Shown piece after piece: positions 1,573-21,671 of a DNA stretch of 52,028 nucleotides. The stretch comes from Bacillota bacterium (lineage in GTDB: Bacteria > Bacillota > UBA4882 > UBA8346). The notes beneath the pieces were generated by a model. The model did no database searches, was not told the origin of the DNA, and worked only from the letters and a program-made list of their open reading frames with translations. The stretch covers positions 1 through 52,028 of the forward strand of contig DNPQ01000567.1 of assembly GCA_003501335.1 (NCBI GenBank), written 5' to 3'. A program made the position numbers and the translations under genes. The first letter of the stretch is position 1; each line of letters starts with the position of its first letter.

Positions 1573-1633
1573 ATTTAGCATTCTCATTCTCCGTTTTCAA
1601 ATTCTTACTTCTCCCTTAAAATTTCTAAATACT

Positions 1634-1867
1634 CTATCGATGATGTCTTCGATGTTCATGACGTTCTGAGTCTCGGCCAGGGCAGCCCGGATCCACAACC
1701 ACATTTCTAGTTATCGGTTGATAGATATGTTGAGGAACATTAACTATATTTTCCCGATTGATATGCACAACCGGATGAATATGAGTAACTGTTCGGAAAG
1801 TATAAGAGTCATGTACACAGTATTGCGGAGGATATATGACTGGCTGACAATCGCACATCCAAATCAC
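1634..1867 (-). CDS. CotD-family inner spore coat protein (likely)
   Basis: 77 aa, rich in Cys, His, Pro and Val, with repeated H-x-hP/VH motifs (THIHPVVHINRENIVNVPQHIY) typical of CotD-type coat proteins. A terminator lies downstream. Confidence 0.55.
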   Translation of the reverse strand: MIWMCDCQPVIYPPQYCVHDSYTFRTVTHIHPVVHINRENIVNVPQHIYQPITRNVVVDPGCPGRDSERHEHRRHHR

Positions 1868-2036
1868 CCCCTAAATTTGCTTATAGAATAATATATGGAT
1901 TTATTAACAGTGAAGATATATGACTCTTATCATATTCTTAAAAAACAGGTTTCCTAAAGTATAGAAATAATAATACCAACCCCAAACGCCCTGCTTGCCT
2001 TATTGTCTTTCCGCACTATTATGGCACCCGTAACCT

Positions 2037-7937: not shown

Positions 7938-8561
7938 ATGATATTTTGGAATTGGTTATGTAAGTTGTTTCACCAATTAATTTCTCCAGACAATGTCGCA
8001 AAACTTTTTATTACCATCCTTGGCGTTTTTCTTGGATATCTACTTTCCATAAAACAATATAAAAAGCACAAAATACAAGAAGAAAATCAATTAACCTTAA
8101 AATATATCGGGTTATTAAAACACGAATTAAGAATGAATCAATCAGTTGTTGATACTTCATTAGGCGTGTTAAACGAAAAATACGACACTCCTGCTATAGC
8201 CATAAATAATTTTTTAAAAAGTTCTGTTCTGATAAATTCATCTATCTCCGATGAAGCTTTACCGGCGGTTTCTAGAGTTGGAATTATTAAAATCCTATCC
8301 TTGAGTAAGATTATTCACTCTTATATTCAACAAAGAATTTTTTGTTATCAAATTAGTAATGAAAGTCAAATTTTAAGAGCAGGAATTGAAAGACCTGGAA
8401 TAGACGTTCCACCGGAAGATAGTCTTTATGAAATGATTAATGATTTTAAATCAATGATGAAAGCACAAATTAAAACGTATAAAGAAGCTGTTAAAGAATT
8501 AGAAGTATTGGAAGAGTCCCTTTTGAAAGCCAAGAAAAACAAAGGTTCAAAACAAAAATAA
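7938..8561 (+). CDS. Single-pass membrane protein (207 aa), function unknown
   Basis: SD aaggag lies upstream. It has an N-terminal TM (LFITILGVFLGYLLSI) followed by a helical soluble domain. A terminator follows. Confidence 0.6.
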   Translation: MIFWNWLCKLFHQLISPDNVAKLFITILGVFLGYLLSIKQYKKHKIQEENQLTLKYIGLLKHELRMNQSVVDTSLGVLNEKYDTPAIAINNFLKSSVLINSSISDEALPAVSRVGIIKILSLSKIIHSYIQQRIFCYQISNESQILRAGIERPGIDVPPEDSLYEMINDFKSMMKAQIKTYKEAVKELEVLEESLLKAKKNKGSKQK

Positions 8562-8565
8562 ACTC

Positions 8566-8603
8566 AACAGACTCCTTCGATTAAACGATGGAGTCTGTTT
8601 ATA
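8566..8603 (+). terminator. Rho-independent terminator of the 7382-8561 operon
   Basis: 10-bp stem aacagactcc / ggagtctgtt with a 14-nt loop and a short T-run. Confidence 0.5.
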
Positions 8604-8672
8604 ACCAAATATTAAAAATTATGCCAAACCCATCAAAATTATTTGTATGTATATTATAGACGATTACTTCGT

Positions 8673-9626
8673 TTAATATCTTAATGGTATCGAAGATTTA
8701 GTGATTTTAATATCATTATAACCTTTAGCATCTAAAAAATAACGTATACTATCTTTTGTTATTCGCATTTTTCTTTTTGGCCCAATCATAATTTCTTCAA
8801 TATATTTTATTGGAAAAGATAGCTTAATATATGGGATAATTAAGTCATGTGAAACTCTAAATTCTATTTCATTTATATTCTTTGTCAACATTGGAGTAAT
8901 TAACCTAAACTCATGTTCATCCTCATACTTTTTATCCTTAGATAAAAGAGCAAATGTAAGTAGATAGAACATTGCAAATTGCTTTACTTGTTCAAAATCG
9001 GCATCTGAAATTAATCCAGCGTCATGCCTTTTATAATAATCTATTAATATTTCTACAAACTTTTTAAATAATTCTTCTTTCAACCTATCATCATATAATA
9101 CATTCCTCCCCATAACCATATTTCTTACATGTTTATTATTAATGGTCAAATTTTTTTGGGTAAATAACATATCTTTAAACACAAGACAATATCCATCATT
9201 ATTAGTATAATTCGACCACAATGTTAAAGAATCTGGTTTATTGCTAAGAGAAATAACAAAAATAAATTTTAATAATTCATTACTAACCTCATTGTAATAA
9301 TTAAAAAACCAATGTGCAAAATCTTTTTCATCTCTATAAAATTCATTTAATACTCTATGTAAAATAGGTTTTAAATGCAACACTTCTTTTTTATCATTTA
9401 AAAACATACAATTTGTTGCCCATAAACTTTTTTCCACCAAAATCGATTGAAGTGAATTTAGGTTCGTATAATGATAAATTTTCTCAGGCAATTTTGTGAC
9501 ATTAAGAATAGATCTATCAATTATGTTTATTTTTTCTAAAAATTCGTCAAACAAGCTCTCTGATTCAATCGTTTCCATTTGCAACCTTTCAAAAAAAATA
9601 TTTGATATAATATTCCATGAAGTCAA
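8673..9626 (-). CDS. DUF2971-family protein
   Basis: 317 aa. The N-terminal motif IYHYTNLNSLQSILVEKSLWATNCMFLNDKKE matches the DUF2971 signature (YhYt…l..Il…l..s…lND..E). The gene is very AT-rich. It has a TTG start with SD gaggg, and ATG at 9578 is an alternative. Confidence 0.6.
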   Translation of the reverse strand: MTSWNIISNIFFERLQMETIESESLFDEFLEKINIIDRSILNVTKLPEKIYHYTNLNSLQSILVEKSLWATNCMFLNDKKEVLHLKPILHRVLNEFYRDEKDFAHWFFNYYNEVSNELLKFIFVISLSNKPDSLTLWSNYTNNDGYCLVFKDMLFTQKNLTINNKHVRNMVMGRNVLYDDRLKEELFKKFVEILIDYYKRHDAGLISDADFEQVKQFAMFYLLTFALLSKDKKYEDEHEFRLITPMLTKNINEIEFRVSHDLIIPYIKLSFPIKYIEEIMIGPKRKMRITKDSIRYFLDAKGYNDIKITKSSIPLRY

Positions 9627-9659
9627 AATTTACCCTCTAAAAATTTGTAAATGACATAA

Positions 9660-9698
9660 AAACCCCCACCGCTTAAAAAAAACAATGGGGGAAATAAT
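9660..9698 (-). terminator. Probable terminator ending the lysis cassette
   Basis: On the minus strand there is a stem ccccca / tggggg with a 17-nt loop and a T-run, directly after the stop at 9699. Confidence 0.4.
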
Positions 9699-10124
9699 TT
9701 AAAAAATAGCCGCGATTGTTGCAATAGCAGCCGCAATAATCGCTATATTTCTTTCCCATACCAACTTACTTACCTCTTTTTTTAATTCCGTCAATGATTC
9801 CTTGCTGCTCTGTAATAAGTTTTGCAGACTCATTAGCTGCATCTTGGCTTCGTCCGATGATGCTTTTAATTCCGTCAAGTCCTGTGTTAACTTGTCCAAT
9901 TCCGTTTGATATGTTTTTAGTTTGGTCTGAGATTCCGCCAAGTTGTTTTGAGATGTCACCAAGTCGACTGATAGTTGCTGATTGAGATTTGATAATCTGC
10001 TCGTAATCTCGGATAGTCTGGCTAATTCTTGATCCGTCACCTGATAATTTCCATCCGCAAAGCACACCGCCGGTAATACCAATAATAAGGCAAATAGAGC
10101 CAATGATAAGATATTTTTGCACAC
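9699..10124 (-). CDS. Spanin-like envelope protein candidate A (141 aa): signal peptide, coiled coil and C-terminal TM
   Basis: GTG at 10124 follows the holin stop, with aggagg 7 nt upstream. The sequence starts with the signal-like MCKNILSLALFALLLVLPAVCFA, continues with a long heptad-like Q/L/S/E/K-rich segment, and ends in the TM anchor IAIIAAAIATIAAIF. It overlaps candidate B in another frame. Confidence 0.45.
   Translation of the reverse strand: MCKNILSLALFALLLVLPAVCFADGNYQVTDQELARLSEITSRLSNLNQQLSVDLVTSQNNLAESQTKLKTYQTELDKLTQDLTELKASSDEAKMQLMSLQNLLQSSKESLTELKKEVSKLVWERNIAIIAAAIATIAAIF
9766..10122 (-). CDS. Spanin-like envelope protein candidate B (118 aa): N-terminal TM plus a helical domain, i-spanin-like topology
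   Basis: GTG at 10122 is 2 nt from candidate A's start and shares the same SD. It has the TM YLIIGSICLIIGITGGVLCGW, then repeated G-x-IS/IK motifs. It lies entirely inside candidate A in another frame. Confidence 0.45.
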   Translation of the reverse strand: MQKYLIIGSICLIIGITGGVLCGWKLSGDGSRISQTIRDYEQIIKSQSATISRLGDISKQLGGISDQTKNISNGIGQVNTGLDGIKSIIGRSQDAANESAKLITEQQGIIDGIKKRGK

Positions 10125-10352
10125 TTAAGCCCCTCCTTCAGGTTTGCCTGGGCCGCCTTTATTTTCTTGAACCACCCGGTAAATATTAATCAAAAACATT
10201 CCGGCGCCACCGATCGTCAATGCGATAATGATCGGCCCGGCATTAGAACGAAACATAAATATATTTCCGATGGTTACGGCGCTAACAAGTAAACCTATCC
10301 AGATTAATCCGATGATTAAAATTTTAGTATGGGTACGAGTTTTCCACATCAT
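10125..10352 (-). CDS. Holin (two transmembrane domains)
   Basis: 75 aa with two hydrophobic helices and a charged Gly/Pro/Lys tail. Its ATG overlaps the amidase TGA (ATGA), which indicates translational coupling. Confidence 0.6.
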   Translation of the reverse strand: MMWKTRTHTKILIIGLIWIGLLVSAVTIGNIFMFRSNAGPIIIALTIGGAGMFLINIYRVVQENKGGPGKPEGGA

Positions 10353-10891
10353 GATAATTTTTCCCCTTGTCTTATAAATTGACTCTTGACATCAGCATAA
10401 AAAGCATTCGGATCAAATAAATCATTTTTCGGATTCGTTTTTCCATTGCTGAAATCAATCCAACAGAATGGATCGAATGGCCGGTTCAAGGGGTCATATC
10501 TGCTATGCGGTTGCAGATAGTCAGGAGTTGGTTTAAATTTATAGCGCAGAATGATATCTACTATCAAATCCAAAACATTCTGATAAATTTCCTTTGTAAT
10601 AGGTTCACAGGTTTCAATTCCAATTGCGTCTCGATTTGCTCCGACGCAATGATAGGCTTGTTCGTTTTCTGGGATGCACCGAATGATATTCGTAGCGTCC
10701 ACAAGATAATGGGCGGATGCGAAAGTTTTACCGGCTAACGGCGGATGATTCAAACTTTCAAAATAGTCCCGGTTATTTTTTGCCGAAGCTCCCGAATTGC
10801 CCGTCCTATGGATAATAATTTTTTGCGGGCGCAATAAAAAAGCCGGCCTATTTTTGCCGACTGAAATAAGATCTTCTTTAATTGGTATCAT
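10349..10891 (-). CDS. Endolysin: N-acetylmuramoyl-L-alanine amidase (Amidase_2/PGRP, T7-lysozyme-like)
   Basis: Motifs IIIHRTGN…, ASAHYLVD and NRDAIGIETCE fit the amidase_2 fold. ATG at 10891 (MIPIKEDL) is preferred over the ORF-track TTG at 10936, which lies inside the upstream gene. Confidence 0.75.
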   Translation of the reverse strand: MIPIKEDLISVGKNRPAFLLRPQKIIIHRTGNSGASAKNNRDYFESLNHPPLAGKTFASAHYLVDATNIIRCIPENEQAYHCVGANRDAIGIETCEPITKEIYQNVLDLIVDIILRYKFKPTPDYLQPHSRYDPLNRPFDPFCWIDFSNGKTNPKNDLFDPNAFYADVKSQFIRQGEKLS

Positions 10892-10919
10892 TTTATAATT
10901 GTCCTCGCTTTCTTTGTTC

Positions 10920-11216
10920 TTATCTCTTTCCTCCAAACCACGCCCCAGCGGCAGCGGCCAATACTATTCCTCCAATAGTTCCGCCAACTTTGCTAATCCA
11001 AATCCATACCGTTTTTTGACCAGCGGAGGTGTCGTTTTCTGATTCAATACTGTCGATACGTTTATTTATTTCTGGAATAGTTTTATCTTCAAGTTTTGTA
11101 ACCCTGCTATTAGTTTTCTGCACTTGTATTAATACTTGCTCTAATATTCCATTGGTTTTACCTGATTCTTCAATTAATTTAATCGCCCAACTCGGTACCT
11201 CTTCCATTTCCATCAC
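10920..11216 (-). CDS. XhlA-like lysis-associated membrane protein
   Basis: 98 aa with an N-terminal coiled segment (VTKLEDKTIPEINKRIDSIE) and a C-terminal TM (VWIWISKVGGTIGGIVLAAAAGAWF). This architecture matches PBSX XhlA. It is the first gene of the lysis cassette. Confidence 0.5.
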   Translation of the reverse strand: MMEMEEVPSWAIKLIEESGKTNGILEQVLIQVQKTNSRVTKLEDKTIPEINKRIDSIESENDTSAGQKTVWIWISKVGGTIGGIVLAAAAGAWFGGKR

Positions 11217-11401: not shown

Positions 11402-11851
11402 TTAAGGATTCATTTTAGGAATATTATCTCTTTCCATATAAGCCTTTTCTTGTGGTTGCCCCTGGTCGATTCTTTCTAAAACAAGCCTCATCTTTTTTAT
11501 ATTGCTTTCAGTCGAGTATGATCCATTCATGGCCCAGGCTGTTTCTCCATCCATTTGAACAGTTTTGGTATAATCAGTTTTTTCTAAAGTTTCATTATCA
11601 TAGTTGTAATATTCTTCCCTAACCCTTAATGTACACTGAATATTACTATAGACCGGAAACGACCAAGAATATTTAATAGTTTGTGTCGGATTCATTTGTT
11701 CATCATATTGCCGTTGCTGTCTCCATTCTCCAGTTAAGAAGAAATATTGTTCCTTCACATTATCGTTGTGCTTGATTCCCCTTCCACCGATACAGCCAGA
11801 AAACAACAATGTAACAATAATTAATAAAAACATTAAATTAATTTTTTTCAT
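11402..11851 (-). CDS. Lipoprotein (moron candidate)
   Basis: 149 aa. The signal peptide has a canonical lipobox (LLFSGC). It lies between the tail fibre gene and the lysis cassette and has its own terminator. Confidence 0.65.
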   Translation of the reverse strand: MKKINLMFLLIIVTLLFSGCIGGRGIKHNDNVKEQYFFLTGEWRQQRQYDEQMNPTQTIKYSWSFPVYSNIQCTLRVREEYYNYDNETLEKTDYTKTVQMDGETAWAMNGSYSTESNIKKMRLVLERIDQGQPQEKAYMERDNIPKMNP

Positions 11852-13396: not shown

Positions 13397-16300
13397 TTAA
13401 CGTCTATTTCCCGGTTTCGGAAATACCAGATCCCGTAAATAGAAATCCTCACCATTTACCATGGAATCATAGATATTGCCAACCGTTGTACTTATTTGTT
13501 TCGATGGATAATGGAGCCAATAACCTCCGGCCTCGAAACCAGACTTTAATAATTTCTCCGGTTTAATGTCTCCCTGGATAGTACCCGGCAACATCCCAAG
13601 GAATTGAGTTGCTTTTGCAAAGGCATCCGCTGAAGGAACTAAATCAACATCGCCCCGGCCAGTCCCAAACATCTTATCTATGGCCGGTGAAATCGCATCA
13701 CGGGCCAATACAAACGCTCCTGCTGGATACTTCAGAATCGTTGACAGCAACCATTTAACAGTGTCGTCGTCATCATCACCGCCACCACCCCACCGGCCGG
13801 ACAATAATTCAGAAACCAGTGCGGGCATGAACCACCAGTAAGCGGCGAATGATATAAGCTGACCGTATTCTCCATTCCGTTTGGCCCGTTGGAATGCCTC
13901 AATCTGGCGGTTCGCATAAACAGAAAAATAGGAATAAAATTGCGTCAATGCCTTGTACCATTCGGAACCGCGCTGGATTCCGGCCATATTTACAATATCG
14001 CCGCTTCCTTGAGTATCCCGTACAACCTGATCGGCGTATCTTATGGCCATTTCATCATTAATCTCTTTGCCGGATTTCATCTGTTGCCCTATATGCTGAT
14101 TGTATGCTTGAATCCATGAAGGCATTGTAACAGCATAGTCAAACAATCCAGTCAAGGCAAAATAAGTATCCTTAATTTCGTCATATGTTCCGCTATCAAT
14201 CATCCGTCTTGTTGCATCCCGAATATCCCGATCCCGGTTGTTCATCCGGTTTTTCATCATTTCTGATTTACCGAATACAAAATTAATTTCTTCACCTGCC
14301 TTTCCTGTCATAGCTTTATAGTAGAAATCTAATACGCCGCCCAAAGTTCTTGTCGGGCCGATCCGTTCCATGACCGGAATAATCCCGGCAAGCTGTGAAA
14401 AGGCGGTCGTAAATTTAATACCCATGTTCACGACCGATGAACCGATCCGGGCCCGTCTTAAAATATTTTCTGCGAAAGCCCACGGCCCAACGGTAGCCAT
14501 ATCCTTGTTATCCCTGGCGATACCTTGCAGCCACGGCCTAAACTGTTTGTAAACCTCATCGCTCATAGTTTCTTTTATCACTTTAGTAACCCGTCCGCTA
14601 TTTAATACCTTGTCCACATCCCGAATTCCATTACTAAATGATACCGAATGGATAACGGTAGCTAAATGATTATCAATAACCGATAAATGTAAATCTAATG
14701 GTCTACCTACTACGGCCTGGACGCGTTGCTTTTCAAATCCTCTACGGGTAGAAGGTTTCAAATAACTAAGGTTAAATAGTTCCTTAATGCTCTCTTCTTC
14801 GGCCTGCCGAAATGCCTTTTCGTTTTTACTCGGATCATAAACTACCGGGTAATAACCGCCGCGATAATCACCATATTTTGTATTGACAATGCTTGCCTCA
14901 ATCTTTATTGGCTCCACTCCGGTCCGGGTCTTTTTGTCCTGGGCGATTTGCGGCCAGTATGAATCAATGAAATCCCAGACATTTTGGACAAAGTCCCAAT
15001 CATTTTTATCCAAAACCTGATCAAAGATATCTTGAAACATATCTTCTGAAGCTAAATTTTCCTGATTCTCCGTGTCGTAGTAGGAATCAACCAGCCGCTG
15101 CCGGTTGCCTTCATTCCCCCAATTCAAGGCCATAGCCAAGACATTTTCCTTGGTGAGCCCGCGGGGAAATAAATCTTCAGTCCCTTTTATGCTTATTTTT
15201 TTTCTGGCTAATTGGCTGGTATCATTGCCATAATAGTTCCGGATAATATCGGTTAACTTTTCTCCGGCTTCCCGGCGCATTTTATATTCCTTATCCAATC
15301 CGCGGAGCATCGGGAGAACAATATAATGCCACGCTGGACCTTGATCTTTGTAACCATCCAGCGCCCTTGCAATCCATTCTACTTTTTGATGAGAAGCAAC
15401 AAATCCCCGGCCCCAATGTTTTGTCATTTCCCCCGGCGCTTTATTGGGATCATAATTTTGCGGGAACAATCTTTTATTCTGTTGCATACTTCCAACCATA
15501 TCTTCAATAATCAAATCAAGGTTTCGCTGTTGTTCATCCGTAAGCAGCTTCTTTTCATTCCGGGCGACAGTGTCAATATTTTTAATCGCATCAACCACGT
15601 CCCGGAGTTCTGAAAGGGTTAAATCCTTATATGGCTTTTGGATTGTCTCATCAGCGATAAAATCAGGAATTGCCGCCTCATCATATTCTTCCCGGGCCTT
15701 TATCCAATCAGCTAAAGGTTCTTCCTGGGTTACGGCATTTGGACCCTGCAAACCGAACCGACCAAGAATATGATCGATTTGACCCAGATGCTCTTTGGCA
15801 ATTTCCGGGCGTTTATTCTTTTGCCATTTTTCGATATATTTAAACGCCCTGTCAACCTCTTGCCGGACCTTTAGCGCCTCCATTGCAAGGGCATGATTCA
15901 GCATTCTTTGATCGGCATATTGGGCGGCAGTCCTGATATCCTTTTTAGCATATGACTGGGATTCTTTAACCGCCGCATTCCGTTCCGCTGCAAAGTATGC
16001 GGTTGCCGCCGCCGCTTCCCGGTAGTTTTTATCTGCTATCGTTGTTTTGGCGTATCTTCTTGCAGCTTCCGCCGCAATCCTGGCCCGTTGCATATTCCAC
16101 TGCTTTTTGTTTGCCTTGGCATTCTCCTGATGAATCAGATCCGTCAACATTTCCCGTTCCATGGCTAATGCACTGAGTTGTTCATCATTATGGAGTGCTC
16201 TTTCGGCCATAAATTGCAGTTCCTGGGGAGAATCCTTCAATTCCCCAAACTGGGACATATGAACCGCCAGCCGATCATTAACCTCCTCTGAAAAATTTCT

Positions 16301-19300
16301 AGCGCCCATGATATCTCTTGCCAGCTGATCGCCTGATGAATAACCAAACGCATCGGCAATTGCTTCCCACCTGGCGATACCTTCATTAGTTATTTCCCCA
16401 TTTTGAAGATACCGTGAGGCCAAATCCTTAACATCCTTTTGCATCCCGAAAGTCTGTTTAATGGCTTCCATGACTTGATAAATGGGCGACTTGGCAACTT
16501 CTTCTTCGATAATGGGCGTAACCCGGTCCCGTTCGGCTTGAAGCAGTTCTTCATGACTTGGTTTTAGCTCGTCCATTTGGGGCTTTAAAAGAGCCTCCAC
16601 TGCCATTTCGTGGGCCTTGGTTTTAAGGTCCCGAAGCTTTTCGAGAGCATCCGAAGTGGCACTTTTCTCATCGATGAAGTCCATTAAATAACCGTCCGCT
16701 GCTTCCCGTTCCTGGATTTCATCCTCGGTCGCCAGCATTCGGTCCATAACGCCCCGGACCTCATCCGACAGTTGAACATTCAAACCGGATACACTTTTGT
16801 AAATCCGAGTTAACCAACGCCGGAAGGCGGCAAAGGCTTTCCTTAGACCTTCGCTGGGCGCTTTCCCCTCCATCAAATAAGACTCAAATCCTCGGGCAAA
16901 TTGTTCCTGCTGGTCAGTTGTAAGCTTGTCCTGATCGCCCTTAATCGCTAGCCAATTCGATAGTGTCTTCCAGTCCTTCATATAGTTTTCGTCAGCCTGT
17001 CCGGACTTTACATATTGAAAGGTGTCCTCTAAAAACAAGTGCGATGATTCATGTAAAAACGAGCTGGCATCAGCTTTTGAAAACAAAGTAATAATCGATT
17101 GGTCCGGATTAATTTGAACATTGGCTCGAGCATCCTGATAATATTTATTAATGACTTTTACGGCATTGTTGTCAAAAATAACATAATTATGAGATCCTTC
17201 ACCGTCTTTTCTGCTTGTAGCATCTAAATACTTGATTCCTGGAATGTCATGAAGGTTTAAATATTTTGAGGCTTTTTCTTTGGCTTCCTCTTCAAATAAA
17301 TCTTTTTCATTGATATAATAATCAACTAATTTGGTATATAAATCCTCACCGGTCATTGAATCATAATTTTTAAAAAGAGAGGGATATTCAGAAGCAATAC
17401 TTTGGATTCCTTTTTTTACTTTATCGCTTTGATCAGTTAAAGATTTATCCCAATCCAAAAAATCTTCTTCGTTTGGTGTTAATGATACTTCAAACAATTT
17501 ACCTTTGCTTGATTCTGGTGATTTAACATTATCTTTTATAAATTTTATTAACGAATCATCGATATCATAATGCTGTTTTATATATTCTTTTGAAGTATCA
17601 ACTACTTCAGCCAAAAAAGCTCCTAAATGTCCACCTAAATCCCCATTATCGCTGTTCCTGTTCCGTTCATATGTACTAATTAATTTATTAGCTTCATCAA
17701 AATGTTTATCATAAAAATCATCAAAATACTTTTCGTAATCTGGGAAATTGTGATCTTGGCTTAGTTCCTCTCTATACCAATCGGCTATTTCCTTTTTCCC
17801 CGCAAAATACAACCCCCAACCATAAGCCTGCTGTCCTTCACCACTTCCAATATGATCGAGCATAAACTTTTCAAAGTCATGGGGTGAACCATGCCAGGCG
17901 TTAGTCTGATATAATAAAGAACCCGGCTCTTTTGATTGAGTCGGGTTTATTGATTCTGAAGATCTTCTTTCGGGATTATTCTGACGTGAGTTATTTTCCC
18001 GAATTTCCCCTCCGCCTGCAATTTCGTAATGTAATCCGGGAGGTTGGTCCCCGCGGCTCGCAGGTCGAATACCTCCGGAGATTTGTTCTCGTTTGTTGTT
18101 TTCAAGGGCTGCGTCTGCTGATCTAAGTTCTTCGCCATGTCCGACACCGAAGGTCACTCCTTTTAACTTAATTTTTCGTCCGTTATTATCTTCTACTTCG
18201 ATTATACTATTGTCTAGAGCATTTTGCAATTTCTGGGATTTCGCTTGTGCTTCTTCCAATGAATTCGATTGAAACGTAAACTCATCCCCGCCAAGACGGA
18301 ACACAGGGCCAATATCAGCTTTTTGAGTCAAATCTGAAATTGCTTTTAGAACTTCATCCCCGGCTTCGTGCCCCATAGAATCATTAATGAACTTGAAGCC
18401 ATTTAGATCAAACATCGTTTGAAACGGTAACCTCGTTTCAGGATTAGACGTGGCCATTTCATAAGCTGCCCGATTATATAATCCGGTCAAACGGTCACTA
18501 TAAACAGCCTTTACCAGTTCCTCCGGTGTCATCTCTTTTACTTTGGCTTTGAGCTGATCATCAAAATTTATCTGTTGAGGAACTTTGCTTTGGTCAAAAG
18601 AAAAACCCTGGTTTTCACCAAGGTTCTTATTTAGTCCTGATTTTTTTTTCGCCTCGGATTTATTACCTCCGAGGTTTACCATTTCGCGTACATTTCCGGT
18701 ATCCGAATCATACGTTATAATACTGTCATAGCCTTCTTTTTTAATAGCGGCAGTTAGTTTCTTTCCGACCAAGCCCTTATACTTTTGGCTTAAATCAGTT
18801 TTCCATCCGCCATGCCCAGTAGTTTTATATTCCATGATAAGAGGATTTTCAAAACTGATGTTACCATATTCATAATTAGGTAAAGCAAACCCAGGAATCG
18901 GATTATCATTGAACCCCATGTATTCTCCGGTAGGCTCGATGTCTTGCCCAAATTGTGATCCCATATAAGGTGATTTTTCAAGATTACGATAATAAGGGAT
19001 GGTTTCTCCGTTTTTAATTCTTTCGATTTGAGTCATGTCAAGGTTATTCGATGATTGATTCAAATTTCCTTCTTGTCCTAACCTGTTATTACCCATTAAT
19101 CGATCAATCTTGCCTTTTAAATCATTTATCCCTTTAATTGTGTTTTCTAGTTGAATAAACTCATTGTTTCCGGGGATATTGTCCGTATCTTCTGAATATC
19201 CTTCTTTAAGTTGTTTAATAGCCAATTCCCGCAATTCTCTTTGCGAAGGTTTACGACCATTCTTGGTATAAAAATCCCGATACCATTTAGGGTTATTGCT

Positions 19301-21658
19301 CTGCCTCCCAATCCGATTAATCACATTACCCAATGCATCAGTAATTAAAGAACCTTGTTGAACTCCTTTTCCGCCAGATTCATTCAAGTATTTAATCTGT
19401 TCATTCAGGATTTTGTTATATTGTTCCTGGATTCCTTTTTGAATCTGTTCGACGGGCTTGTTTTGAGCGGCCAGAGTTTCAATAAAAGCTCTTTCGTTAT
19501 CATTTAGTTTTCCAAGTATATCGGGGCTGACTTGATTTGGCATAAAATCAACATTATAAATCTCCGGTTGCATCATCCCCATATATAATTCGAGTGGGTT
19601 TACTTGCCGCCGGGATCCTTCGGCTACCATCCGGGAAGCAAATACCTGGGCCGAATATTTAGCCTCTCTTTCACTTCGGCCGGCAGAAACCAATTTATCT
19701 TTGATATCGTTATAAATCGATTCATAATTGGTATTCTGTATCTTAGCTTGCTTTTGTTCTTCTTCAATGGCCTTTTTAACCCGTTCTTCTTCGACTGCAG
19801 CCTGATTCAAAGTAAGACCATCTGCACTAAATTTGATATCGCCTTCGAGTTTTTTATATATCGGAGTCTTGGCGGTCTTTTCCAGCCAAGTTGCATAGGG
19901 AATAGAAAGAGGCTTCCCGGTCTGGGTAGCCTCTTGTAATTGGTCGTTGATTCCTAATTCCTTGGCAACCTCCTGAACAACCAACCCCGGGTCGGTCCCT
20001 TCCGGAGCCATCGACTGCATGAGGGCAACAAAGGGTTCAGGATCAATATAAATGTTTTCGAGTTTTCCCCCTTGGGTACTGGCTTCCACAAGAGTGCGCC
20101 AGGCTTCCGGCAATCTATCTAGATACTTAGACTTTGCGGCCATCTCGCCGGTTTTCTTATAAATATCCGCATTATCTTTGGCTTCATTAATAGCAGCGTT
20201 GGTTTCGGCGTGGGGAGTCTCTGGCTGCGCCAAATTATTTAACGCAATAACCTGACTTCGGTTCGGGGTCCTTCCAGTCTCAATAATAGCCTGCGCCATT
20301 TGGTGGGCATGACTTGAAAAAGGCAATCCCATGGCATGCATTACCGTAGTCATGGCAAAAGCGCCATAAGCGTCTGATTCCGCTTGGGGTACGCTAATAA
20401 CGCCGTTATCTCCAAAGAAAGGCATATCCGGTTGGTAAAGAGTTTTTTTGACCGCCTGAGTTAATGGGGTTGTAATAACTTCTTGGACTGTTTCTTCCGC
20501 AGTATTCTTTAAAAAATCCCATCCGGCTTTTCCAAACTCTTTGACAATATTCTTAATCCCAGCCTGTACAATTTCCTTCGAGCCGGTCATAGCGATATAG
20601 TCCCGGACAAAAGGCAGCTCCGTAACCATTTCAACACTACCGCCATATAAACCATAAGCGGCCTGTTGAGATACGCTAGCCCCCTCTTGTTTCGCTTGTT
20701 CAGCATATTGACCGACAGACTGCACGCCAAAGGGAATCATATCTTTTATTGATTTCAGTAATAAAGAAGCTTCCCCGCCTAATGTTGGAGCCTCTGCCGC
20801 CCCTCCGGTCATAGCACCCATCAGCACAGTGGGCACCATATTGACAGTTGCCGAACCACCTATATAGGCTAATTTCTTTACACCTTTCATTGCCTGGCTT
20901 TCTTGTTCGGCAGTATCCATAACGGCTTGACTTTCAGCGCTCCGTTCATTCAACCATTTAACGACACTGTTATTTGATCCAAAAATTGCTTCAATAGGCA
21001 AACGACCTAAACCATACATCCCCTGATTAAATTGGGCGGCCCCGGAATAGGCCATCTGTTTCACTGTTTCCCACCAAGAAGGTTGCCTGGAACCAATCGT
21101 TGTATTTTTATATTTATAGTCTGGCCCAATAGTAGAACCGGGATATACTTGTTTGATATTCTGAAAGTGCTGCTCTTGTGTCGCTAATTCCGGAATCAAA
21201 TCTTTTGCAGTGGCCATATTCTTGGGATCGCTCAAAAACTGTGAGAGCGTCGGATACTGTTTTGCAATGCCATCCCAATCTATGGAAGAACTCTTTTTAT
21301 TATTGAACGCCTCCGCTACCTGCTCCCGCATATCAGGATCAGTCATAAAATATTCAGCGGGAATGCTTAAATCATTGGACATCTTAACATCTTTAACCGC
21401 CTGGTCTGGCGTAGTCTGTTCAGCAACCATAGCGGATTGCCGCAAACTATTGGCAGTATCTTCACCCATATTTCTGACTTCGGGGGGAATATAATTATTG
21501 CTATCCGGTTTGATCGCAAATTCATCTAATACTTCATTAGTTTCTGCCCCGGTTAAAGGTGCCGATTTAGATGCAGTGCTGGGGCTAACATAACTATTTG
21601 TCCCAAACTCTTTATTGAATTGGTCCTGTTCATCTTCTGTTAAGGGAATACCCGGCAT
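13397..21658 (-). CDS. Giant internal-virion/ejection 'polyvalent' protein (~2750 aa) with GGDEF, ART-like and HExxH modules
   Basis: One uninterrupted ORF in the T7 gp16 position. ATG at 21658 (SD gaggtg 6 nt upstream) is preferred to the track's GTG at 21667. It contains hydrophobic segments, a GGDEF domain, a PARP-like HGS/GLYFA block, an HESSH motif and long helical regions. Confidence 0.85.
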   Translation of the reverse strand: MPGIPLTEDEQDQFNKEFGTNSYVSPSTASKSAPLTGAETNEVLDEFAIKPDSNNYIPPEVRNMGEDTANSLRQSAMVAEQTTPDQAVKDVKMSNDLSIPAEYFMTDPDMREQVAEAFNNKKSSSIDWDGIAKQYPTLSQFLSDPKNMATAKDLIPELATQEQHFQNIKQVYPGSTIGPDYKYKNTTIGSRQPSWWETVKQMAYSGAAQFNQGMYGLGRLPIEAIFGSNNSVVKWLNERSAESQAVMDTAEQESQAMKGVKKLAYIGGSATVNMVPTVLMGAMTGGAAEAPTLGGEASLLLKSIKDMIPFGVQSVGQYAEQAKQEGASVSQQAAYGLYGGSVEMVTELPFVRDYIAMTGSKEIVQAGIKNIVKEFGKAGWDFLKNTAEETVQEVITTPLTQAVKKTLYQPDMPFFGDNGVISVPQAESDAYGAFAMTTVMHAMGLPFSSHAHQMAQAIIETGRTPNRSQVIALNNLAQPETPHAETNAAINEAKDNADIYKKTGEMAAKSKYLDRLPEAWRTLVEASTQGGKLENIYIDPEPFVALMQSMAPEGTDPGLVVQEVAKELGINDQLQEATQTGKPLSIPYATWLEKTAKTPIYKKLEGDIKFSADGLTLNQAAVEEERVKKAIEEEQKQAKIQNTNYESIYNDIKDKLVSAGRSEREAKYSAQVFASRMVAEGSRRQVNPLELYMGMMQPEIYNVDFMPNQVSPDILGKLNDNERAFIETLAAQNKPVEQIQKGIQEQYNKILNEQIKYLNESGGKGVQQGSLITDALGNVINRIGRQSNNPKWYRDFYTKNGRKPSQRELRELAIKQLKEGYSEDTDNIPGNNEFIQLENTIKGINDLKGKIDRLMGNNRLGQEGNLNQSSNNLDMTQIERIKNGETIPYYRNLEKSPYMGSQFGQDIEPTGEYMGFNDNPIPGFALPNYEYGNISFENPLIMEYKTTGHGGWKTDLSQKYKGLVGKKLTAAIKKEGYDSIITYDSDTGNVREMVNLGGNKSEAKKKSGLNKNLGENQGFSFDQSKVPQQINFDDQLKAKVKEMTPEELVKAVYSDRLTGLYNRAAYEMATSNPETRLPFQTMFDLNGFKFINDSMGHEAGDEVLKAISDLTQKADIGPVFRLGGDEFTFQSNSLEEAQAKSQKLQNALDNSIIEVEDNNGRKIKLKGVTFGVGHGEELRSADAALENNKREQISGGIRPASRGDQPPGLHYEIAGGGEIRENNSRQNNPERRSSESINPTQSKEPGSLLYQTNAWHGSPHDFEKFMLDHIGSGEGQQAYGWGLYFAGKKEIADWYREELSQDHNFPDYEKYFDDFYDKHFDEANKLISTYERNRNSDNGDLGGHLGAFLAEVVDTSKEYIKQHYDIDDSLIKFIKDNVKSPESSKGKLFEVSLTPNEEDFLDWDKSLTDQSDKVKKGIQSIASEYPSLFKNYDSMTGEDLYTKLVDYYINEKDLFEEEAKEKASKYLNLHDIPGIKYLDATSRKDGEGSHNYVIFDNNAVKVINKYYQDARANVQINPDQSIITLFSKADASSFLHESSHLFLEDTFQYVKSGQADENYMKDWKTLSNWLAIKGDQDKLTTDQQEQFARGFESYLMEGKAPSEGLRKAFAAFRRWLTRIYKSVSGLNVQLSDEVRGVMDRMLATEDEIQEREAADGYLMDFIDEKSATSDALEKLRDLKTKAHEMAVEALLKPQMDELKPSHEELLQAERDRVTPIIEEEVAKSPIYQVMEAIKQTFGMQKDVKDLASRYLQNGEITNEGIARWEAIADAFGYSSGDQLARDIMGARNFSEEVNDRLAVHMSQFGELKDSPQELQFMAERALHNDEQLSALAMEREMLTDLIHQENAKANKKQWNMQRARIAAEAARRYAKTTIADKNYREAAAATAYFAAERNAAVKESQSYAKKDIRTAAQYADQRMLNHALAMEALKVRQEVDRAFKYIEKWQKNKRPEIAKEHLGQIDHILGRFGLQGPNAVTQEEPLADWIKAREEYDEAAIPDFIADETIQKPYKDLTLSELRDVVDAIKNIDTVARNEKKLLTDEQQRNLDLIIEDMVGSMQQNKRLFPQNYDPNKAPGEMTKHWGRGFVASHQKVEWIARALDGYKDQGPAWHYIVLPMLRGLDKEYKMRREAGEKLTDIIRNYYGNDTSQLARKKISIKGTEDLFPRGLTKENVLAMALNWGNEGNRQRLVDSYYDTENQENLASEDMFQDIFDQVLDKNDWDFVQNVWDFIDSYWPQIAQDKKTRTGVEPIKIEASIVNTKYGDYRGGYYPVVYDPSKNEKAFRQAEEESIKELFNLSYLKPSTRRGFEKQRVQAVVGRPLDLHLSVIDNHLATVIHSVSFSNGIRDVDKVLNSGRVTKVIKETMSDEVYKQFRPWLQGIARDNKDMATVGPWAFAENILRRARIGSSVVNMGIKFTTAFSQLAGIIPVMERIGPTRTLGGVLDFYYKAMTGKAGEEINFVFGKSEMMKNRMNNRDRDIRDATRRMIDSGTYDEIKDTYFALTGLFDYAVTMPSWIQAYNQHIGQQMKSGKEINDEMAIRYADQVVRDTQGSGDIVNMAGIQRGSEWYKALTQFYSYFSVYANRQIEAFQRAKRNGEYGQLISFAAYWWFMPALVSELLSGRWGGGGDDDDDTVKWLLSTILKYPAGAFVLARDAISPAIDKMFGTGRGDVDLVPSADAFAKATQFLGMLPGTIQGDIKPEKLLKSGFEAGGYWLHYPSKQISTTVGNIYDSMVNGEDFYLRDLVFPKPGNRR

Positions 21659-21671
21659 TCTTATCACCTCA

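Follow-up and report, generated by a model that had tools for sequence, protein, structure and literature searches.

Two-component spanins are encoded downstream of holin and endolysin by genes that overlap out of frame; in lambda Rz/Rz1 and P2 LysB/LysC, two envelope proteins are read from different frames at the end of the lysis cassette. The inner-membrane subunit (i-spanin) is built of an N-terminal transmembrane (TM) segment and a helical periplasmic domain. In about 70% of embedded pairs the start of the gene for the outer-membrane subunit (o-spanin) falls at some 0.4-0.5 of the i-spanin length; the embedded o-spanin is a short, unstructured lipoprotein with an obligatory lipobox cysteine (PMC6139136). 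Here we analyze two open reading frames (ORFs), A and B, that overlap on the minus strand of a 52,028-nucleotide (nt) contig from a Bacillota bacterium (DNPQ01000567.1, the whole of which we call the window). The pair shares with two-component spanins both its place in the cassette and its out-of-frame overlap, and the plan predicted for the B protein matches that of an i-spanin. Dual coding of A and B is well supported by the sequence comparisons described below and is, in our judgment, very probable.

In other respects the locus differs from the described systems. The geometry of the pair lies outside that reported for embedded spanins: the overlap comprises all of B and 84% of A, leaving the last 22 codons of A outside, the two starts are 2 nt apart, and one Shine-Dalgarno (SD) sequence precedes both. 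Unlike an o-spanin, A is longer than its partner, is predicted to be fully helical, lacks a conserved cysteine and has its own C-terminal membrane anchor. The unimolecular spanin (u-spanin) gp11 of T1 resembles A in having an N-terminal export signal and a C-terminal TM segment and in being the product of the last lysis gene. However, gp11 depends on a lipoprotein signal for the outer membrane, and its predicted structure is mainly beta, whereas A is predicted to be cleaved by signal peptidase I (SPase I) and to form one long alpha-helix; A is also co-encoded with a second protein. The paired starts recall lambda S105/S107, in which close start codons on one ribosome-binding region allow the product ratio to be set at initiation, but S105 and S107 lie in the same frame, two residues apart, while A and B are unrelated proteins in different frames. 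Finally, XhlA of PBSX is, like A, a small coiled coil with a C-terminal TM segment from the lysis cassette of a Bacillota phage. XhlA has no signal peptide, unlike A, and the match of A to the Pfam XhlA family (PF10779) scored 18.9 bits, below the 34.7 cut-off. In the literature we found neither spanins nor an overlapping pair of this kind described for phages of diderm Bacillota.

Both Frames Are Open Beyond Chance

The minus-strand start context of the pair is TGAAGGAGGGGCTTAAGTGTG. The first-pass annotation of this DNA had reported two fully overlapping ORFs on one strand, with nearly coincident starts served by the same SD. The coordinates and sequence features were confirmed on the minus strand, where a single GGAGG stands 7 nt from the A start and 9 nt from the B start; the TAA of an upstream 75-amino-acid (aa) ORF with two TM segments abuts the A start (Table 1).

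Holding the A protein constant and sampling synonymous codons by their frequency in the genes of the window (11,352 codons), we obtain an exact probability of 3.1e-6 that B remains open for 118 codons, so that the earlier claim that an alternative frame of this length is unlikely by chance holds. With B fixed, the probability that A is open over the overlap is 1.8e-5. A conservative shuffle of each gene's own synonymous codons gave P = 0.003 for B and P = 0.015 for A. Both frames are open in 35 of 35 homologous loci (L numbers below), which fall into at least five deeply diverged clades. Computed locus by locus from the A protein and local codon usage, the probability that B is open ranges from 5e-7 to 5e-4 (7e-7 to 4e-4 in the nine loci L019-L027), and that of A being open given the B protein from 3e-7 to 2e-5.

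A simpler reading would be that only A is a gene and that B is held open by composition, A being a K/E/Q/L-rich coiled coil whose codons rarely have T in third position. For frame B to contain a stop, T is needed at the third position of an A codon, and T is indeed infrequent there, at 18% in the window and 10-18% in homologs versus 33% in reference genes; in L019-L027 it is 9-20% versus 27-37% locally. Unusually few stops (1-5 per locus) likewise occur in the antisense frame that is in phase with the +1 sense frame; this shows that composition does affect stop frequency. The probabilities given above, however, are already conditioned on the A sequence and are still small, and B is open at every locus recovered. 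A general composition artefact was ruled out by the 9-21 stops found in two other frames, +1 and the antisense frame in phase with A. In the window, the A coding sequence contains 13 stops in the +1 frame and 21 in the antisense frame in phase with A, and only its own stop in frame B.

The open antisense frame contains an ORF of 63 aa in the window and of up to 175 aa in homologs (L016, 423-950, minus strand; another lies in L006 at 1596-1976, minus strand). It is not conserved as an intact ORF, and its openness is probably due to the depletion of T at A third positions, since two of the three stop codons possible in it require T at that position.

Codon usage was also compared. The codon log-likelihood of both frames is 0.06-0.16 (in the window, 0.075 for A and 0.122 for B), between the values of real genes (0.20 +/- 0.05) and those of off-frames (-0.01 +/- 0.05), as expected if frames A and B compromise each other. 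The slightly higher value of B could be taken to favor the opposite single-gene reading, that only B is a gene and A an accidental open frame, and gene callers did choose B for the window's contig and for several relatives. Against this stand the low probabilities of A being open given B, and the fact that A runs 22 codons past the B stop. In this tail the reading frame, the motif LVW[EQ]RN and the hydrophobic anchor are kept across clades, with a nonsynonymous-to-synonymous ratio (dN/dS) of ~0.17-0.21. Together with the selection on A in the overlap described below, this makes the B-only reading extremely unlikely.

Selection Acts on Both Frames

To measure selection we used an OLGenie-style count, in which sites are classed by their effect in both frames, over all pairs of sequences and with bootstrap over codons. 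Column-wise aa identity per frame was dropped as a test, since any nucleotide conservation appears in all frames and the +1 frame looked as "conserved" as B. In the window clade, the L006 clade and L033-L037, the ratio of changes altering both proteins to changes silent in A (dNN/dSN) is 0.40, 0.29 and 0.36, respectively. The corresponding ratio for B, in which the denominator is changes silent in B (dNN/dNS), is 0.43 (interval 0.26-0.67), 0.50 (0.33-0.80) and 0.50 (0.33-0.73). In these three clades, which diverged independently, the frequency of B-silent changes is thus about double that of changes affecting both proteins. Control frames did not behave in this way: dNN/dNS is 0.98, 1.13 and 1.16 for the +1 frame of the same DNA, and 1.12, 0.95, 0.94 and 0.53 for fake frames of the adjacent amidase genes, the interval of the last including 1. 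These counts indicate that frames A and B are both under purifying selection in the three clades. The A ratios of 0.29-0.40 are hard to reconcile with A being accidental, and the B ratios with B being so.

The synonymous sites of A give the same picture. Their divergence is 0.28 and 0.43 in the overlap, as against 1.2 and 2.9 in the A tail past the B stop and 1.2-1.7 for synonymous sites of the amidase gene in the same genomes, that is, 3-5 times lower in the overlap than in the tail or the amidase. In sliding windows over the window clade, the proportion of synonymous differences (pS) is 0.03-0.32 across the overlap (0.21 overall) and 0.59 in the A tail; the L006 clade averages 0.31 over the overlap and has 0.71 in the tail. 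None of the same-size windows inside the overlap reached the pS of the tail (0/97 in the window clade and 0/108 in the L006 clade). A comparison of synonymous sites in homologous cassettes had been suggested at the outset, and in three clades it finds constraint on both frames, the extra constraint on A-synonymous sites ending at the B stop.

The A-only reading can call on a 172-cluster full-length family of A, a high-confidence model of its product, and a motif and an anchor outside the overlap, as well as on the clade L019-L027, in which no selection on B is detected. It does not account for the preference for B-synonymous changes in three clades, for a synonymous constraint that stops where B stops, or for the B start codon: this GTG is invariant in the two closest clades, where it forces an odd residue, Cys or Trp, at position 2 of A. 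We therefore consider it very unlikely that A alone is a gene. The earlier fallback, that only one of the two frames is real, is opposed by the preservation of both ORFs, by frame-specific selection and by the boundary of synonymous constraint.

The Paired Start Is a Family Trait

Protein searches retrieved relatives annotated in frame A (P0001-P0005) and others annotated in frame B (P0006-P0013); the frame chosen by gene callers thus differed between contigs, and was B in the window's own. A profile of A searched against 1.84 billion representatives gave 172 clusters at E<=1e-3; among the clusters listed, nearly all are 110-190 aa long and most align over nearly the full profile length. More distant loci came from IMG/VR scans with two sub-alignments (21 loci) and from GenBank (1 fecal phage contig), and in all of these the +2 frame is open for 101-162 codons. 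Scans of IMG/VR and JGI metagenomes with the close-family alignment gave no match, nor did the scan with alignment A8. In a tblastn search of 50,697 phage records the window A had no match, and a distant member matched one unannotated fecal contig. Homologous phages with one frame closed had been named at the outset as evidence against the pair; all 35 recovered loci keep both frames open.

The start-site scan was valid for 27 of 30 loci (L022, L029 and L032 were not scored, owing to the choice of A start), and in 26 of these 27 the two starts are no more than 16 nt apart. The most common offset is +2 nt, in an NTGTG context ([G/T]TGTG or ATGTG), found in 13 loci and also assigned to L003. Offsets of -4 nt (ATGTATG), -10 nt, and -13 or -16 nt occur in 6, 3 and 2 loci, respectively, and +14 nt in 1 locus. 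The codon 2 nt before the B start of L003 is CTG; its A start is 9 nt further upstream, with B 11 nt after it. Among the unscored loci, L029 has its B start 32 nt after the first A start in the ORF listing, and in L022 a GTG in frame B shortly precedes the A start. Near-coincident starts, first noticed in the window, are therefore recurrent in the family, and one ribosome-binding region for the two frames is thus a family trait.

Several observations limit the case for dual coding throughout the family. In L019-L027, the most divergent clade, where synonymous sites are saturated, the B ratio is 1.03, giving no usable signal; L040-L043 is ambiguous, with similarly low values for the control frame (0.69) and for B (0.63); and no canonical B start codon precedes the TM segment in L032 or in L027, the one scored locus of this kind.

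Two loci, L001 (2393-2968) and L002, carry a truncated A/B remnant in a host chromosome context, in a Peptidase_U32 neighborhood with no recognizable lysis cassette. Both frames are open to a breakpoint at about codon 120, followed by unrelated sequence, and the remnant looks like a decayed prophage end.

Predicted Structures of the A and B Proteins

Table 1. Features of the A/B locus and the lysis cassette in the window. All features are on the minus strand.
Feature	Coordinates (nt)	Length or residues	Remarks
98-aa ORF	10920..11216	98 aa	coiled coil and C-terminal TM segment; weakly XhlA/holin-like
Endolysin, N-acetylmuramoyl-L-alanine amidase	10349..10936	195 aa	Amidase_2 4.7e-17; PHROG endolysin families 1e-21
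Putative holin/lysis membrane ORF	10125..10352	75 aa	two hydrophobic segments; assigned from position and hydrophobicity
Shared initiation region	10120..10136		GGAGG 10136-10132, TAA 10127-10125, GTGTG with both starts
Start codons within GTGTG	A 10124-10122; B 10122-10120		
Frame A ORF	GTG 10124 to stop 9699	141 aa	
Predicted A signal peptide	10056-10124	aa 1-23	hydrophobic N-terminus, A-x-A-type site
Predicted A C-terminal hydrophobic anchor	9702-9749	aa 126-141	15-residue hydropathy mean 2.78
Frame B ORF	GTG 10122 to stop 9766	118 aa	+2 relative to A
Predicted B N-terminal TM helix	10051-10113	aa 4-24	after short basic N-terminus
A-only tail past B stop	9699..9765		encodes LVWERN and C-terminal anchor
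Terminator-like hairpin	9663..9691		12-bp stem then TTTTT, 8 nt past A stop

The topologies first proposed for the two proteins, a signal, a long helix and a C-terminal anchor for A and an N-terminal TM segment with a helical domain for B, recur in AlphaFold2 (AF2) models and in hydropathy predictions. The model of A is one continuous helix over residues 31-140, with a predicted local distance difference test score (pLDDT) of 84. Its C-terminal anchor is present across the family by hydropathy, although weaker in some clades. In B, helices are modeled at residues 2-24, 30-72 and 76-117, the last two forming a hairpin.

The A-x-A-type SPase I site is general across the A family. In the window clade the N-terminus of processed A is predicted to read N-Y-x-[VIM]-T; other clades have I-T-[DE]-x-E-L-x-R-L-E-Q-I-F. 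The A protein of the window carries the sequence PAVC, whose cysteine is two or three residues before the cleavage site. A cysteine near this site is absent from P0001-P0004, from L003 and from ~40% of the 30 family members inspected. Because it is missing in the closest homologs and in so many members, A appears to be no obligate lipoprotein, and the assignment of A as a lipoprotein was ruled out. This agrees with the initial impression that the pair has no canonical lipobox.

When A, B and distant homologs were compared with Pfam, PHROGs and NCBIfam, only sub-threshold matches to generic coiled coils were found. By the thresholds of these three collections, A and B are outside every described family. 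Profile searches of Pfam, NCBIfam and PHROG likewise gave no similarity of A or B to spanins; B was not directly compared with a known spanin sequence.

Lysis Cassette, Prophage and Host

The pair is the last gene of the lysis cassette of the window and is followed by the terminator-like hairpin, which from its sequence is predicted to mark the end of the late/lysis transcription unit. At all loci with upstream sequence, the pair comes directly after a short (130-230 aa) single-domain endolysin, with holins nearby. The endolysin is of the Amidase_2, Amidase_3-like, M15-like or another type; that of the window is a single-domain amidase with no cell-wall-binding domain. The 75-aa ORF between amidase and pair had no family match. 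The 98-aa ORF on the other side of the amidase overlaps the listed TTG start of the latter by 17 nt, and had sub-threshold matches only (phrog_1193, 0.0034; DUF2951, 0.0057); from its overlap and matches, the cassette may hold a further membrane lysis factor besides the 75-aa ORF.

The window contains a prophage integrated beside tRNA-Lys and tRNA-Met. Its portal, tail-tube A and B and internal virion proteins are similar to their counterparts in epsilon15, phiV10 and BPP-1-like podophages; among prophages of spore-forming Bacillota, a virion of this type is unusual. In the host flank the genes run yaaO-tmk-darA-yaaR-holB-yaaT, with BofA and Gin. L030 and L031, homologous to 46.6-51.7 kb of the window, carry DUF2508, BofA and Gin (CsfB) upstream of yaaO-tmk, and contigs from other samples break right after yaaT, where the window has the prophage and the tRNA genes. 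The presence of BofA and Gin in the flank points to an endospore-forming Bacillota as the host.

Among 210 phage records with a homolog of tail-tube B, hosts are diderm or unstated and none is a monoderm Bacillota, the one exception to this pattern being a metagenomic contig listed with Methanomicrobiales. Taken together, a spore-forming Bacillota as host and a phage of the epsilon15/BPP-1-like kind make it likely that the host is diderm, for example a Sporomusaceae-like spore-former of the Negativicutes. No outer-membrane gene of the host was seen. Negativicutes lack LolA and LolB (PMC5007114).

Several other genes of the prophage region were noted. A giant ORF of 2756 aa (13397-21667, minus strand; phrog_9880, E = 6e-273) lies among the internal-virion and tail genes. 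Between the tail fiber gene and the lysis cassette is a gene for a 149-aa protein (11402-11851, minus strand) with the canonical lipoprotein signal LLFSGC and no family matches, which could be a superinfection-exclusion protein or an envelope moron. Just downstream of the cassette, positions 8001-10000 form the lowest-GC stretch of the window (0.29), which carries a DUF2971/phrog_1762 gene (8673-9626, minus strand, 317 aa) and a divergently oriented 207-aa ORF; these may be prophage-end cargo or defense genes. In the related prophages of L003-L005, a GtrB-like Glycos_transf_2 gene (3497-4468 in L003) and a YmaF-like gene are found just upstream of the lysis cassette and could serve surface-glycan modification (serotype conversion).

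A Spanin-Like Role Is Probable

From the position of the pair, the predicted topologies and the type of phage, we think that A and B are probably a dual-coded, lipoprotein-independent, spanin-like pair that ends the lysis cassette. One ribosome-binding region would feed two starts 2 nt apart, so that ~360 nt are read in two frames; the start codons would compete, and this would fix the A:B ratio. B would be a type-II inner-membrane protein in which the TM segment is followed by a periplasmic helical hairpin, as in an i-spanin. A would be a secreted coiled-coil helix of ~100 residues, anchored in the inner membrane by its C-terminus, and cleavage by SPase I would expose its conserved N-terminus. 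Acting after holin and endolysin, the two proteins would destroy the remaining layer of the envelope, which in diderm Bacillota is the outer membrane. The processed A N-terminus is the obvious candidate for contact with this membrane. Such a two-component system would need no lipoprotein anchor, which fits hosts lacking LolA/LolB. As a more tentative extension, the pair might represent a widespread, undescribed outer-membrane-disruption system of phages of diderm Bacillota, hosts that, lacking the Lol pathway, could not place a lipoprotein o-spanin in the outer membrane; A and B would form a periplasm-spanning complex, and the A N-terminus would engage the outer membrane or the OmpM tether.

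The following points count against a spanin-like role. A fails the defining feature of o-spanins and u-spanins, the lipoprotein signal, and the predicted anchors of A and B both lie in the inner membrane, which leaves engagement of the outer membrane unexplained. The model of B is only moderately confident (pLDDT 66), and a Foldseek search of BFVD with it returned nothing better than E = 0.27 and no spanin-like match. What is more, we infer the outer membrane of the host from the type of phage and the architecture of its endolysin.

Some of these points speak for the chief rival explanation, which keeps dual coding but assigns the two proteins a different role. They could be regulators of lysis timing, as holin/antiholin partners or XhlA-like proteins, or factors acting on another layer, such as the S-layer, lipoglycans or teichoic acids, comparable in this to LysZ of corynephages and possibly in a monoderm host. 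The two inner-membrane anchors, with no outer-membrane targeting signal in either protein, would suit such a role, as would the weak, sub-threshold XhlA match of A and the indirect assignment of the host envelope; non-spanin factors for the third step of lysis do exist (bioRxiv 10.1101/2025.06.24.661397). On the other hand, the pair always comes last, after short single-domain endolysins typical of phages of diderm hosts, and such phages also have virion modules of this type. The extended helices of ~100 residues in A and B are suited to spanning the periplasm, and in the window separate small membrane proteins already occupy the holin positions. We regard this other role as unlikely, although less so than either single-gene reading.

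Implications

The A/B pair would offer a clear, family-wide case of near-complete dual coding in bacterial viruses, in which each product is longer than 115 aa and selection acts on the two alike. If this is true, the overlap, at >115 codons and 84-100% of both genes, would be among the longest conserved same-strand dual-coding regions in bacterial viruses, and it indicates that long overlaps can persist through deep divergence. Standard gene callers report one of the two frames, seemingly at random. The arrangement suggests that the stoichiometry of partner proteins may be fixed by start-codon competition on a single ribosome-binding site. Single-base, frame-specific knock-outs are possible, so that the question is directly testable. 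All known spanins use a lipoprotein-sorting pathway that diderm Bacillota lack, and for phages of these hosts the pair would be a concrete candidate for the means by which the outer membrane is breached.

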